DNA from: an uncultured Candidatus Saccharibacteria bacterium
GTDB lineage: Bacteria > Patescibacteriota > UBA1384 > JACPKC01
Length of the DNA stretch: 29,676 bases
Direction: 5' to 3'
Assembly (NCBI GenBank): GCA_964636735.1
Contig: CAZWUV010000001.1
Span: forward strand, 1 to 29,676
The notes beneath the pieces are model-generated. The model had not been told where the DNA came from. It saw nothing but the letters and a program-made list of their open reading frames with translations, and made no database searches. Shown piece after piece: positions 10,420 to 12,800 of the stretch (position 1 is the first letter of the stretch; each line of letters begins with the position of its first letter). Both the position numbers and the translations under genes were made by a program.

Positions 10420-10662
10420 TTAAATCATTTCCTTGATAAATAAATTTCCAACTGAAGAAAGAACAAATAAGATTGCTAATATAATAGTTGTATTAAATAA
10501 AAATTTTTCAACGCCCCTTTTAGAGCGATAAATTGCGTTAGTTCCACCAAAAGCACCGCCCAAGCTAGTTCCGCGCTGTTGCATTAAAATAGATGTAATT
10601 AGGGCAATCGAAATAATAATCTGAATGATATTGGGACCGTATTGTTTTAGAAAGTCTAACAT
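10420..10662 (-). CDS. secG: Preprotein translocase subunit SecG
   Basis: Two TM helices around ILMQQRGTSLGGAFGG....RSKRGVEKFL. Confidence 0.93.
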   Translation of the reverse strand: MLDFLKQYGPNIIQIIISIALITSILMQQRGTSLGGAFGGTNAIYRSKRGVEKFLFNTTIILAILFVLSSVGNLFIKEMI

Positions 10663-10722
10663 AATTTTACTTGCAAATAATAGTGTAGGTGTAGTTGATG
10701 CGACAAAGTTTTAGTGTGATTG

Positions 10723-10797
10723 TGGAGGCCCAGGTCGGAATCGAACCGACGCATTGAGGTTTTGCAGACCCCTGCGTTACCACTTCGCCACTGGGCC
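10723..10797 (-). tRNA. tRNA-Cys (GCA)
   Basis: Cloverleaf GGCCCAG..GGGGT-CTGCAAA-ACCTC..GTCGG-TTCGATT-CCGAC-CTGGGCC-T-CCA with a U73 discriminator. Confidence 0.97.
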
Positions 10798-10800
10798 CTG

Positions 10801-10840
10801 GGTGTTTTGGAGCGGAAGACGGGATTTGAACCCGCGACCT
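10801..10840. repeat. 40-bp perfect direct repeat, copy 1 (copy 2 at 11117-11156)
   Basis: GGTGTTTTGGAGCGGAAGACGGGATTTGAACCCGCGACCT occurs identically at 10801-10840 and 11117-11156. It covers the variable loop, T-arm, acceptor 3' strand and CCA of tRNA-Gly plus 7 nt of trailer. The period is 316 bp. Confidence 0.97.
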
Positions 10841-10860
10841 TCCCGCTTAGCGGGACGCTC
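10808..10860 (-). pseudogene. Partial tRNA-Gly pseudo-copy (3' two-thirds) with the anticodon arm replaced by a 15-nt palindrome
   Basis: Minus strand reads GAGCG-[TCCCGCTAAGCGGGA]-AGGTCGCGGGTTCAAATCCCGTCTTCCGCTCCA. The intact gene reads GAGCG-[CCTCCTTGCCAAGGAGG]-AGGTCGCGGG.... The 5' acceptor strand and D-loop are absent. Confidence 0.9.
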
Positions 10861-10873
10861 AATTAAGCAAAGC

Positions 10874-11116
10874 TTAATTTCCAAGTAATTTTTTAAATTG
10901 GTTGCCGCCTTTATAAGATTTAATTTGGCGTTCCCTTCTTTTTGCCTGCAAAGAAGACTCAAATGTCTCTTTGTATATTAACAACCACTTGCCAGATTGA
11001 CGCGTAGACGTTGTTTGTCCACGATTATGTTCTGACAGTCTTCGCTTTAAATCATTTGTCGATCCAATGTAGTGTCGACCTGATTTTGTATTGCGAAGAA
11101 TATAGGTGTAATACAT
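10874..11116 (-). CDS. Small stand-alone GIY-YIG nuclease family protein
   Basis: MYYTYIL......HYIGST.DLKRRL.EHN.G...T....W.LIY.E.F.....A..RE.QIK. The Tyr motifs, conserved Arg and metal-binding Glu appear intact. 80 aa. Confidence 0.93.
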   Translation of the reverse strand: MYYTYILRNTKSGRHYIGSTNDLKRRLSEHNRGQTTSTRQSGKWLLIYKETFESSLQAKRRERQIKSYKGGNQFKKLLGN

Positions 11117-11123
11117 GGTGTTT

Positions 11124-11198
11124 TGGAGCGGAAGACGGGATTTGAACCCGCGACCTCCTCCTTGGCAAGGAGGCGCTCTACCACTGAGCTACTTCCGC
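11124..11198 (-). tRNA. tRNA-Gly (GCC)
   Basis: GCGGAAG-TA-GCTC-AGTGGTA-GAGC-G-CCTCC-TTGCCAA-GGAGG-AGGTC-GCGGG-TTCAAAT-CCCGT-CTTCCGC-T-CCA. Confidence 0.97.
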
Positions 11199-11215
11199 AT
11201 AGTTTTATTTTTTTA

Positions 11216-11299
11216 AAGACGGGATTTGAACCTTCCGCTTCTAGTGGAACAGGCGCAACCTTCCCGCTAAGCGGGACGCTCGTATCAAGCTACTTCCGC
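11216..11299 (-). pseudogene. Degenerate tRNA-Gly pseudo-copy: anticodon arm swapped for the palindrome, 21-nt hairpin inserted in the T-stem, 3' acceptor end lost
   Basis: Minus strand reads GCGGAAGTAGCT-TGATAC-GAGCG-[TCCCGCTTAGCGGGA]-AGGTTGCG-[CCTGTTCCACTAGAAGCGGAA]-GGTTCAAATCCCGTCTT. AGCTACTTCCGCAT is identical at 11187-11200 and 11288-11301. Confidence 0.9.
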
Positions 11300-11396
11300 A
11301 TGCTTTACAATAGTAGCAAAAATATACTATAAAATAAAGATGTTGCAAGTTTTTTAATTTACCTGTACTGTCAATTCATAGCATAAAGGAGTAAAA

Positions 11397-11624
11397 ATGC
11401 CAAGAAAACTAGGAAGATCTGAGCTAGCAAAAGCCAAAAAAGAGGCTACCACTAAAGGGCTTACAAAGCACAAGACAATCGAGCAAATCAGAATTGATTT
11501 TTTAGGATCGATGGCGCTTTTTGTAGTCTGCCTTGGTGTCTTAGGTGGTATTTATTATTTTGACCAAAGCTCTCCTCTGCTGAGTGAATGGTCGGTAAAA
11601 GTTTACGAATTTTTAGGGATTTAG
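11397..11624 (+). CDS. Hypothetical small membrane protein (basic N-terminus, one TM helix)
   Basis: AAGGAG SD before the ATG and an upstream TTGCAA-17-TACTGT promoter (11343-11371). One hydrophobic segment. Confidence 0.75.
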   Translation: MPRKLGRSELAKAKKEATTKGLTKHKTIEQIRIDFLGSMALFVVCLGVLGGIYYFDQSSPLLSEWSVKVYEFLGI

Positions 11625-12778: not shown

Positions 12779-12800
12779 ACCCCGCCGAATTTGGCGGGGT
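12779..12800 (-). terminator. Intrinsic terminator after the comM/hypothetical unit
   Basis: ACCCCGCC-GAATTT-GGCGGGGT perfect stem, followed on the minus strand by GTTTTCGTTTT. Confidence 0.75.

Follow-up and report, generated by a model that had tools for sequence, protein, structure and literature searches.

A minimal GIY-YIG nuclease gene among hairpin-plugged tRNA-Gly fragments, a candidate selfish cassette in a tRNA operon of Candidatus Saccharibacteria

Free-standing GIY-YIG homing endonucleases of the Seg type (SegB and others) occur in the tRNA gene cluster of T-even phages. Seg enzymes are larger than 200 aa and carry DNA-binding modules, and we know of no Seg locus with partial tRNA duplicates in which hairpins have replaced the arms. 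In fungal mitochondria, mobile endonuclease ORFs such as that at the Allomyces atp6 gene bring along a replacement gene end, and the resulting sequence difference gives immunity. The UPF0213/YhbQ-like family has long been assumed to consist of repair enzymes. UPF0213/Slx1-like proteins were described as a minimal GIY-YIG domain without accessory domains, for which a repair role and mostly vertical descent were predicted and linkage to tRNA genes was not mentioned (PMC1564403).

The locus reported here lies in a stretch of 29,676 nucleotides (the window) from a Candidatus Saccharibacteria genome of 692 kb, a fragmented metagenome assembly of 87 contigs that is 95% complete. Read on the minus strand, which is the RNA-sense strand, the order is copy A, tRNA-Gly(GCC), a gene for an 80-aa GIY-YIG protein, copy B and tRNA-Cys (Table 1). 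Copy A consists of the 5' half of tRNA-Gly followed by a palindrome and debris, and copy B of a palindrome followed by the 3' half. In relatives of the same family, tRNA-Gly is followed by tRNA-Cys without the insert, which, judging from sequence, is the ancestral order. The ATG of the ORF lies 7 nt past the CCA of tRNA-Gly, and no Shine-Dalgarno sequence was visible ahead of it. The promoter-like site upstream of copy A is likely the start of one transcript covering copy A, tRNA-Gly, the ORF, copy B and tRNA-Cys, and no terminator-like site was found between copy A and tRNA-Cys.

Table 1 Features of the tRNA-Gly/tRNA-Cys locus, in positions of the window
Feature	Position	Strand	Basis or remark
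tRNA-Cys(GCA)	10723..10797	-	ARAGORN, Rfam; follows tRNA-Gly in the ancestral order
40-nt direct repeat, identical to 11117-11156	10801..10840	.	tRNA 3' half plus 7 nt past CCA
Copy B, spare 3' piece of tRNA-Gly	10808..10860	-	equals the intact gene outside the swapped arm
Palindrome of copy B	10841..10855	.	TCCCGCTTAGCGGGA on the plus strand; exact anticodon-arm slot
AT-rich palindrome AATTAAGC-AAA-GCTTAATT	10861..10879	.	overlaps the ORF stop codon; in copy B, at the would-be D loop
80-aa stand-alone GIY-YIG nuclease gene, UPF0213/Slx1-like	10874..11116	-	Pfam PF01541, 1.8e-15
tRNA-Gly(GCC), intact	11124..11198	-	ARAGORN; Rfam tRNA, 77 bits; cloverleaf fold
Native anticodon arm of tRNA-Gly(GCC)	11157-11173	-	between ACCT and CGCTC (plus strand)
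Copy A, spare 5' piece of tRNA-Gly	11216..11299	-	missing from a relative (run X4)
Palindrome of copy A	11262..11276	.	TCCCGCTAAGCGGGA on the plus strand, TCCCGCTTAGCGGGA in RNA sense; exact anticodon-arm slot
19-nt direct repeat, 89% identical to 11187-11205	11288..11306	.	5' end of the tRNA and the flank ahead of it
Promoter-like site TTGCAA-16-TATATT, upstream of copy A	11321..11348	-	consensus match only

Given that ARAGORN places the anticodon of tRNA-Gly at position 33, its 5-bp stem and 7-nt loop coincide exactly with the native arm delimited in Table 1. In copies A and B, this 17-nt arm is replaced base-exactly by TCCCGC-T(T/A)A-GCGGGA. The exact swap claimed in the original prediction was borne out, as both palindromes lie between ACCT and CGCTC on the plus strand like the native arm, and the central base is indeed the sole difference between the two 24-mers. 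The prediction of two pseudo-tRNA copies held for the arm swap in both, while the extent given for copy A had to be corrected to 11216-11299. Copy A comprises the acceptor 5' strand, an altered D arm, the palindrome, AGGTTGCG, 15 nt of debris and a second fragment, in which positions 1-7 are joined to the T arm and which ends at CTT. Copy B comprises GAGCG (the 3' strand of the D stem plus G26), the palindrome, the variable loop, the T arm, the acceptor 3' strand and CCA, and it is 100% identical to the intact tRNA-Gly outside the swapped arm. Neither copy obtained a tRNA score with ARAGORN or Rfam, even at E<=1, and copy B folds into a closed three-way structure (z = -3.5). At up to two mismatches the palindrome gave 4 strand-hits versus 0.09 expected, and four or more were reached in none of 100 shuffles; a chance origin of the paired palindromes is excluded. 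On inspection, no consistent match was seen that would derive the hairpin from the local T arm or from a fold-back of the flank.

Other expectations fared less well. The genome-wide search for TCCCGC-N1-5-GCGGGA that had been proposed for finding the palindrome in further pseudo-tRNAs returned only two further matches, in a 23S-rRNA-like contig and an intergenic repeat, neither of them in a pseudo-tRNA. Different palindromes accompany the three remaining GIY-YIG genes that are tRNA-linked in the source genome. The central T/A difference had been equated with palindromes lying in opposite orientations. However, both copies at another locus (G028) have the asymmetric loop CTATGC in the same orientation, and inversion was rejected as a general feature, since loop differences at further loci are of kinds that an inversion would not produce. 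Given these loops, the T/A centre is best read as a substitution at the one loop position that is free to vary. A complete tRNA mimic was likewise not supported, as copies A and B are partial, are separately present or absent in natural populations and have no tRNA score.

The 80-aa protein matched PF01541 with 57.5 bits (cut-off 22.6), and this single Pfam domain spans residues 1-68. It is thus a bare catalytic domain, and Pfam detected no DNA-binding module in it. The closest solved structures were 1zg2 (2.5e-5) and 1ywl (4.5e-4), both from UPF0213, followed by those of SLX1 (4xlg and 6seh), which places it nearer to UPF0213 or SLX1 than to UvrC or I-TevI among solved structures. Residues Y5, Y16, G18, R26, H30 and E62, which include the GIY and YIG tyrosines and the metal-binding Glu, are invariant in the five paralogues of the source genome and line up with 1zg2 and 1ywl. 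The small GIY-YIG family was present in half of 162 genomes of the class, with up to 8 matches per genome. An exact-sequence look-up of the 80-aa protein found no record.

The locus resembles those of Seg enzymes in that a GIY-YIG gene sits between tRNA genes as a presence/absence unit inherited with its tRNA flanks, which is presumed to spread by recombination through flanking homology. Unlike Seg enzymes, the protein has just the catalytic domain, 80 aa in length and from the UPF0213/Slx1 branch, and the host is a bacterial chromosome, not a phage. As at Allomyces atp6, a part-copy of the target gene is carried and a dead remnant lies beside the ORF. There the intact gene that is kept is partly foreign, a counterpart of which is the mosaic flank described below (locus L032); at the present locus, in contrast, the intact tRNA is unchanged and the remnant is altered by the arm-for-hairpin swap. 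With tRNA-targeting integrative elements, which duplicate the tRNA 3' end (attL/attR), the insert shares flanking direct repeats from the 3' part of the tRNA and the regeneration of an intact tRNA, but it measures 316 bp, the duplicates also include 5' parts and the long ones are hairpin-plugged. No tyrosine or serine integrase was found in the 316-bp unit, and an integrase island was rejected because the GIY-YIG gene is its only ORF. Similar to REP/RAYT, Rickettsia palindromic elements and yeast mitochondrial GC clusters, short GC-rich hairpins are dispersed in an AT-rich genome, some of them inside stable-RNA genes. Unlike these miniature repeats, whole arms are replaced here at exact boundaries, and the hairpins co-vary with the neighbouring nuclease gene. 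PF01797 (Y1, RAYT) was absent from the 95%-complete genome while control genomes were positive, and a REP/RAYT system was rejected for lack of it. A group I intron or other RNA family was rejected as well: Rfam gave no intron match at E<=1 in 10600-11450, and the tRNA is uninterrupted, with the ORF placed outside. The UPF0213/Slx1-like proteins BH0048 (1zg2) and EF2693 (1ywl) belong to the same protein family (PMC1564403), but the genes described here are multi-copy, patchy, polymorphic and set among tRNA fragments. The literature searched contained no published description of a nuclease gene combined with hairpin-plugged tRNA pieces, and the arrangement apparently represents an undescribed, widespread selfish cassette inside tRNA operons.

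The arrangement recurs within the genome and beyond it. Four of the five small GIY-YIG genes in the source genome adjoin a same-strand tRNA gene accompanied by hairpin-plugged tRNA fragments, and the four cassettes carry four different hairpins. Among 80 homologous loci from many phyla, at least 32 showed the same tRNA linkage with hairpin-plugged fragments. At least 16 other loci of the same nuclease clade have (C/T)CCCGC(C)..(G)GCGGG(G/A) in the anticodon-arm slot of a spare tRNA-Gly. In these hairpins the outer pair changes from T-A to C-G in a compensatory manner, the loops vary freely and the central dinucleotide is often not self-complementary (AA, AG, GT or AC). Long spare copies never kept the native anticodon arm (0 of 22, from several tRNA types and phyla), and duplicates of only 15-20 nt had no hairpin. 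Replacement of the arm was found in copies of Gly, Asp, Arg, Ala and Lys tRNAs, and at some loci (such as L036, L038 and L117) several arms of one fragment are plugged. The view that the swap is not random decay was thus upheld, as it recurs regularly from locus to locus, in different tRNA types and phyla, and is tied to the adjacent GIY-YIG gene; graded intermediates between arm and palindrome were not seen among the loci compared.

Furthermore, hairpin type tracks the nuclease clade, whereas the tRNA flanks track the neighbouring tRNA. On the nuclease tree, hairpin type required 17 changes versus 26.6 with shuffled labels, and none of 200 shuffles was as low. In one group of loci (L032, L119 and L120), the stretch to the left of the hairpin agrees with the neighbouring tRNA throughout (25/25), while that on the right matches the neighbour at 8/16 positions and the tRNA-Gly of the L028/L030 lineage at 14/16. 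The nuclease of L028/L030 is the sister of that of L032/L119/L120. Such mosaic flanks, one clear (the L032 group) and one probable (L110), are too few to generalise.

Direct repeats derived from the tRNA mark the borders of two units. The 40-nt exact repeat forms both borders of the 316-bp unit made up of the ORF and copy B, and the 19-nt repeat bounds a 101-bp unit containing copy A. In a public metagenome run from activated sludge (X3), a contig joins 10800 to 11117 with flanks free of mismatches, so that the same strain exists without the 316-bp unit. In another run (X4), a contig of a relative with about 90% identity joins 11186 to 11288 and lacks copy A. Both joints fall within tRNA-derived direct repeats, and depth over the GIY-YIG ORF was zero in X3, X4 and a further run, X6. 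Close relatives are therefore polymorphic for presence or absence at the tRNA-Gly/tRNA-Cys locus; the X3 difference is either a deletion or an insertion.

We favour, with a probability of about 0.55, the explanation that the pseudo-tRNAs belong, as redundant parts of tRNA-Gly, to a selfish cassette centred on the gene for a minimal GIY-YIG nuclease (UPF0213/Slx1-like), with the hairpin acting as a plug. Direct observations made here are its anatomy, its repeated occurrence, a hairpin type linked to the clade, the presence/absence polymorphism and the mosaic flank. From them we infer nuclease-driven homing and the role of the plug. The core of the cassette would be the nuclease gene and a clade-specific GC-rich hairpin, here TCCCGC-TWA-GCGGGA, and the cassette would be seated in the tRNA-Gly/tRNA-Cys operon. 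It may enter and leave by recombination through tRNA homology, either by a Campbell-type single crossover or by break repair, and the flanks of the hairpin would match the local tRNA for this reason. Since every event of this kind duplicates a portion of the tRNA and spares one complete gene, the host would be unharmed. Wherever the redundant piece is long enough to contain the anticodon arm, the arm is missing and the hairpin occupies its slot. The base-exact boundaries could arise because the alignable parts are kept identical to the intact neighbour, leaving the hairpin as a non-homologous block that is presumably kept by selection for pairing. The plug may stop the spare piece from presenting a second anticodon arm, the arm being where the nuclease most probably enters tRNA-Gly genes that have no cassette, and the plug would halve the uninterrupted homology otherwise able to delete the cassette.

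Several observations do not sit easily with this cassette. The suggestions that the anticodon arm is the cut or recognition site and that the hairpin is a resistant replacement or a tag would all fit the data. The intact tRNA-Gly beside the nuclease gene, however, keeps its native arm. Were the target contained entirely in the tRNA, the genome that carries the cassette would itself be cut, and this poses a real difficulty to a simple target-and-immunity reading. Sequence comparison found no short target that is in the empty allele but absent from the occupied one. Nor does the plug prevent loss, since copy B keeps the 40 nt of uninterrupted identity that bound the X3 indel. A bare 80-aa domain is unlike the known site-specific GIY-YIG homing enzymes, and one locus of another clade (L193) retains an anticodon arm in decayed form, with the plug located in the D loop; both count against the explanation. 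The link between hairpin and clade could be plain co-descent. Addiction of the host by holding the tRNA hostage was rejected, because the nuclease gene is lost cleanly when the intact tRNA recombines with copy B, and an ORF-free allele exists in nature (X3).

The palindrome TCCCGCTWAGCGGGA might instead be what the nuclease itself recognises or cuts, as a recognition tag or an end of the cassette, which we consider unlikely. Cutting of the palindrome or its cruciform by a Slx1-like enzyme, dimeric or structure-specific, would allow excision, circularisation, integration at hairpin sites or exchange of stem-loops at the stem base, and such an exchange would by itself give base-exact swaps. This would agree with a hairpin type that follows the nuclease clade across hosts and inside one genome, with stems conserved more than pairing requires, with hairpins that flank the tRNA and ORF on both sides at many loci and with the reappearance of such hairpin types in other intergenic repeats of the source genome. 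SLX1, the nearest characterised relative, is a structure-specific nuclease, and GIY-YIG restriction enzymes are reported to cut short GC-rich palindromes. Several hairpins are fully palindromic through the centre, with CATG, AGCT, CCGG or GTAC cores; the argument from dyad symmetry is nevertheless weak, and such symmetry was rejected as proof of a duplex-DNA site, since the often non-self-complementary centres in the window's clade fit a stem-loop better than a symmetric duplex site. Moreover, cassettes with short 3' duplicates have no hairpin at all, so the nuclease family does not need one, natural indels end in tRNA-derived repeats rather than hairpins, and excision between both hairpins would leave a dead tRNA-Gly. 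Also unlikely is a bolder form, in which a minimal Slx1-like nuclease that reads structure has the palindrome for its cognate DNA site and the two together make up a new type of mobile element that combines hairpin-directed cleavage with tRNA homology. In its extreme version, the element would excise a stem-loop at its base and insert its own hairpin, exchanging arm for hairpin, and the varied anticodon stems of tRNA-Gly among lineages could reflect an arms race with the nuclease.

It is improbable that the hairpin acts in RNA, either protecting the ends of the nuclease mRNA after RNase P/RNase Z processing or forming an inert, non-decoding tRNA-like fold. The apparent single transcript with one promoter-like site and no terminator, the start codon so close behind the CCA and hairpins 15-40 nt ahead of the start codon or just past the stop at other loci would suit such a role, as would conserved stems with a compensatory outer pair and free loops. 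Processing of the intact tRNA by RNase P, however, would part the hairpin of copy A from the mRNA, and an intrinsic terminator lies between tRNA and ORF in two loci (L035 and L036). The closed three-way fold of copy B also speaks for an RNA role, but its closing stem is not conserved in L027, and mRNA protection needs neither exact replacement of an arm nor plugging of several arms. We give equally little credence to palindromes that are independent miniature elements (of the REP, RPE or GC-cluster kind) colonising dispensable stem-loop DNA, with the nuclease a mere neighbour. In the source genome, hairpins of these types do form multi-copy families away from the cassettes (CCTGCCTGCCGGCAGGCAGG about 9 times and TCCGCCAGCTGGCGGA about 5 times), hairpins resembling GTCCCGCT(T)AGCGGGAC lie within heptamer-flanked intergenic repeats, and there are ORF-less fragments with hairpins (e.g., C25, C59, C50 and C68). 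Insertion nonetheless cannot explain how a 17-nt arm is replaced at both stem ends in five tRNA types, hairpin type goes with the nuclease clade in different hosts, and the RAYT/Y1 transposase is missing from the source genome. The exact palindrome was rejected as a genome-wide repeat, with just two loosely similar matches (the 23S-rRNA-like contig and intergenic repeat mentioned above); related hairpins with 1-2 mismatches sit in heptamer-flanked repeats. Finally, the fragmentation of the assembly might speak for an artefact or for randomly decayed tRNA duplicates, but this explanation is effectively refuted: independent public runs gave the same sequence without mismatch, dozens of unrelated assemblies contain the same swap, and the shuffle test never reached the observed count.

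If the selfish-cassette explanation is true, the smallest known GIY-YIG proteins are not only repair enzymes, and part of the UPF0213/YhbQ-like family drives a selfish element of about 300 bp in tRNA operons of many phyla while sparing the tRNA. The 80-aa protein and a hairpin of 15-20 bp would make a defined biochemical pair, which bears on how a nuclease domain without a DNA-binding module finds its site. In ultra-small (CPR) bacteria, whose genomes are small, such cassettes may explain part of the rearrangements and fragments that burden the surroundings of tRNA genes. An RNA-gene arm that a conserved hairpin replaces base-exactly is a distinctive and searchable signature, by which annotators could recognise cassettes and cease to label the fragments as tRNA pseudogenes or odd tRNAs. 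Some hairpin-plugged fragments are miscalled by ARAGORN.

In RNA sense (the minus strand), the locus begins with a promoter-like site, followed by five elements and then tRNA-Cys. The ORF starts seven bases past the CCA of tRNA-Gly(GCC). Copy B, the partial spare tRNA-Gly piece beyond the ORF, matches the neighbouring intact tRNA-Gly at 45/45 tRNA-derived bases and continues into tRNA-Cys through 7 nt identical to those behind the intact gene. No tRNA score was obtained for copy B or for copy A, the spare piece on the other side, with ARAGORN or Rfam (even at E<=1).

Features of the locus around the intact tRNA-Gly gene
Feature	Position	Strand	Content
Copy A	11299 down to 11216	-	tRNA-Gly acceptor 5' strand, altered D arm, G26, TCCCGCTTAGCGGGA, AGGTTGCG, 15 nt of debris
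Copy A, end part	within 11299-11216	-	second scrap: positions 1-7 fused to T arm
Intact tRNA-Gly(GCC)	11198 down to 11124	-	
Native anticodon arm of intact tRNA-Gly	11157-11173		
80-aa ORF	11116 down to 10874	-	GIY-YIG domain (PF01541, 1.8e-15)
AT-rich palindrome			overlaps the ORF stop codon
Copy B	10860 down to 10808	-	GAGCG, TCCCGCTAAGCGGGA, full tRNA-Gly 3' half with CCA

In both copies, the 15-nt palindrome is bounded by the same flanking bases as the native arm, confirming the original prediction of a base-exact swap, and shuffling places the swap far from chance (0/100 shuffles equalled the palindrome pair). The differing central base (T/A), previously read as opposite orientations of one palindrome, is better explained by loop substitution, as an asymmetric loop has the same orientation in both copies of another genome (G028). 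Taken as DNA, the native arm also forms a perfect palindrome of 17 nt (CCTCCTTG-C-CAAGGAGG); therefore, one palindrome was exchanged for another. Across cassette-bearing lineages (cassette meaning nuclease gene, hairpin, and tRNA pieces), tRNA-Gly anticodon stems vary considerably (CCTCC, TCTCC, CATCC, CTACC, CTTCC, and ATTCC). A further candidate, ACCCCGCCGAATTTGGCGGGGT (window 12779-12800, plus strand), was rejected as a cassette hairpin; it is an ordinary intrinsic terminator, with a minus-strand hairpin and then a T run behind a gene.

The arrangement recurs widely. G028 has the layout of the window on tRNA-Asp, with TCCCGACCTATGCGTCGGGA in the arm slot of both spare pieces. Of 80 homologous loci from species genomes, spread over phyla that include Patescibacteria, Verrucomicrobiota, Lentisphaerota, Planctomycetota, and Bacteroidota, no fewer than 32 place a same-strand tRNA 150 nt or less from the ORF. 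With the 9 nt either side of the anticodon arm as anchors, 22 long spare copies were accepted as genuine, derived from Gly, Arg, Lys, Ala, Asp, and Ser tRNAs; the native arm survives in none of them. Short duplicates, in which the tRNA 3' end is represented by just 15-20 nt, lack the hairpin. In other nuclease clades, the hairpin plug occupies the D loop, anticodon loop, or T arm, sometimes several arms per fragment; one exceptional locus (L193) retains a decayed arm and is plugged in the D loop. Some hairpin-substituted pseudo-tRNAs (L035:967-1041 and L048:1015-1098) were called by ARAGORN as tRNA-Leu(CAG) or as tRNAs with undetermined anticodon, so that annotations can gain false tRNA genes from such cassettes. 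At many loci (L109, L111, L117, and others), the nuclease ORF extends into the tRNA-like part, where its stop is the TAG of D-arm GGTAG or U8-A9-G10, and at some the T loop supplies the ATG (TTCAAATG), so that gene ends and tRNA sequence are fused.

We examined 28 loci of the window's nuclease clade (59-75% identity) from genomes and metagenomes, nearly all at tRNA-Gly(GCC or CCC) and one at tRNA-Pro. In their spare copies the arm slot is filled exactly by (C/T)CCCGC(C)-N2-5-(G)GCGGG(G/A), with a conserved stem, a T-A or C-G outermost pair, and a freely variable loop; the 15-mer of the window is this hairpin minus one base pair, as also at L110. On the tree of 80 nucleases, hairpin types are clustered (17 changes versus 26.6 with shuffled labels; 0/200 shuffles as low), which indicates co-inheritance rather than recognition because relatives share labels by descent. 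The 20-mer CCTGCCTGCCGGCAGGCAGG is also found in distant hosts having C43-type nucleases. The tRNA-derived bases next to the hairpin, on the other hand, normally equal those of the neighbouring intact tRNA. In the group of locus L032, identity to the left of the hairpin is 25/25, whereas the 16 nt from hairpin to ATG match the neighbouring tRNA at 8/16 and tRNA-Gly of the L028/L030 lineage, whose nuclease is sister on the tree, at 14/16. Hairpin, leader, and ORF therefore moved between lineages, with recombination in the tRNA arm. Judged by these sequence comparisons, the hairpin is best assigned to the cassette and the flanks to the tRNA.

The host genome (692 kb, 87 contigs, ~95% complete, 39% G+C) contains five small GIY-YIG genes, four of them adjoined by a same-strand tRNA and each of these four with a different hairpin. 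At tRNA-Asn, tRNA-Ser, and tRNA-Gln, the ORF is preceded by a 5' tRNA fragment whose D loop contains a GC-rich palindrome, and is followed by the intact tRNA. The fifth gene (94 aa, C49:960-1400; L023:560-1000) has no adjoining tRNA and resembles a miniature transposon, being flanked by inverted repeats GGTCATCCCTGACA / TGTCAGGGATGACC and small GATC-centred palindromes. A conserved GC-rich non-coding element of ~170-200 nt (C68:1300-1510, L022; C3:13300-13500, L025; C50:2520-2700, L026; C59:3440-3600, L024) lies 3' of tRNA-Arg(CCT), the tmRNA gene, tRNA-Ser(GGA), and tRNA-Arg(TCT). Its core is ..GCCAGAGGGCAGAGCCCATGGAG(C/T)GTA-GTCCGCC..GGCGGAC.., and every copy terminates in a repeat of its own neighbour's 3' end (T loop to CCA). 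It had no Rfam match and resembles a cassette relative without the ORF that has moved within this genome. Intergenic repeats (C2:10610-10740, C17:2400-2540, C17:4260-4360, C8:660-830, C37:3330-3520, and C7:14830-14960) consist of (T)AGAATA/TTCTATT heptamer arrays around one or two GC-rich hairpins, GTCCCGCTTAGC..GAC-like and CCTGCCTGCCGGCAGGCAGG, of types found in tRNA cassettes.

Alignment of public metagenome contigs to the locus revealed presence and absence in natural populations. The ORF is present in run X1, probably the source sample. In run X3, from another study, copy A is present, ORF depth is nil, and a contig passes from tRNA-Cys directly to the intact tRNA-Gly (joint 10800-11117, 316 nt skipped, flanks without mismatch). 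An approximately 90% identical relative in run X4 lacks copy A, its intact tRNA-Gly being joined straight to the upstream flank (joint 11186-11288, 101 nt skipped). Each joint falls within a tRNA-derived direct repeat (40 nt in X3, 14-19 nt in X4), so ORF plus copy B and copy A are separate units, gained or lost via tRNA-homology recombination. In same-family relatives, tRNA-Cys directly follows tRNA-Gly.

We slightly favour, at a probability of about 0.55, a selfish cassette that is built on a core of nuclease gene plus its own hairpin and enters tRNA genes by recombination. A resident tRNA gene would recombine with the cassette, either in a single crossover with its excised circular form or through break repair, necessarily repeating part of the tRNA and leaving one functional gene. 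Homogenisation would keep all alignable sequence the same as the adjacent gene, and the hairpin, a heterologous block, would persist through selection for its pairing; exact boundaries would then need no special enzymology. The plug may strip the redundant piece of the arm that the nuclease would attack in cassette-free tRNA-Gly genes, and may also halve the uninterrupted homology able to delete the cassette. This reading meets three difficulties: the intact tRNA-Gly retains the arm; the protein, of the UPF0213/Slx1 branch, consists of a bare catalytic domain and has no DNA-reading module; and the 40-nt repeat is unplugged exactly at the natural indel site.

The main rival reverses the logic, making the hairpin the nuclease's own site. 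Clade-specific stems, the frequent placement of hairpins on both sides of tRNA plus ORF, and the structure specificity of SLX1 would suit it, but hairpin-free cassettes exist and the natural joints fall outside hairpins, and we consider it improbable. Action of the hairpin at the RNA level, or palindromes that are independent elements, appears less likely.

The 80-aa protein is clearly a member of the UPF0213/Slx1-like family, which a 2006 survey of the GIY-YIG superfamily treated as a vertically inherited repair enzyme, with tRNA linkage unmentioned (PMC1564403). In the literature searched, we found no description of a tRNA-linked GIY-YIG gene with a hairpin-plugged arrangement. Among known systems, the locus comes closest to, and shares logic with, the Seg endonucleases encoded free-standing in the tRNA clusters of T-even phages, mobile ORFs of mitochondria that supply a replacement gene end, and tRNA-targeting integrative elements. 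However, its nuclease lacks the DNA-binding domain of the first, the locus has no sequence-diverged replacement as in the second, and there is no integrase as in the third. This small GIY-YIG family also occurs within a 16S rRNA gene, flanked by CCACACCTCT and AGAGGTGTGG (L213, G041:C2:366380-366580), and, in several other genomes, between inverted CCCCCACACC / GGTGTGGGGG repeats (L201, L208, L209, and L211).
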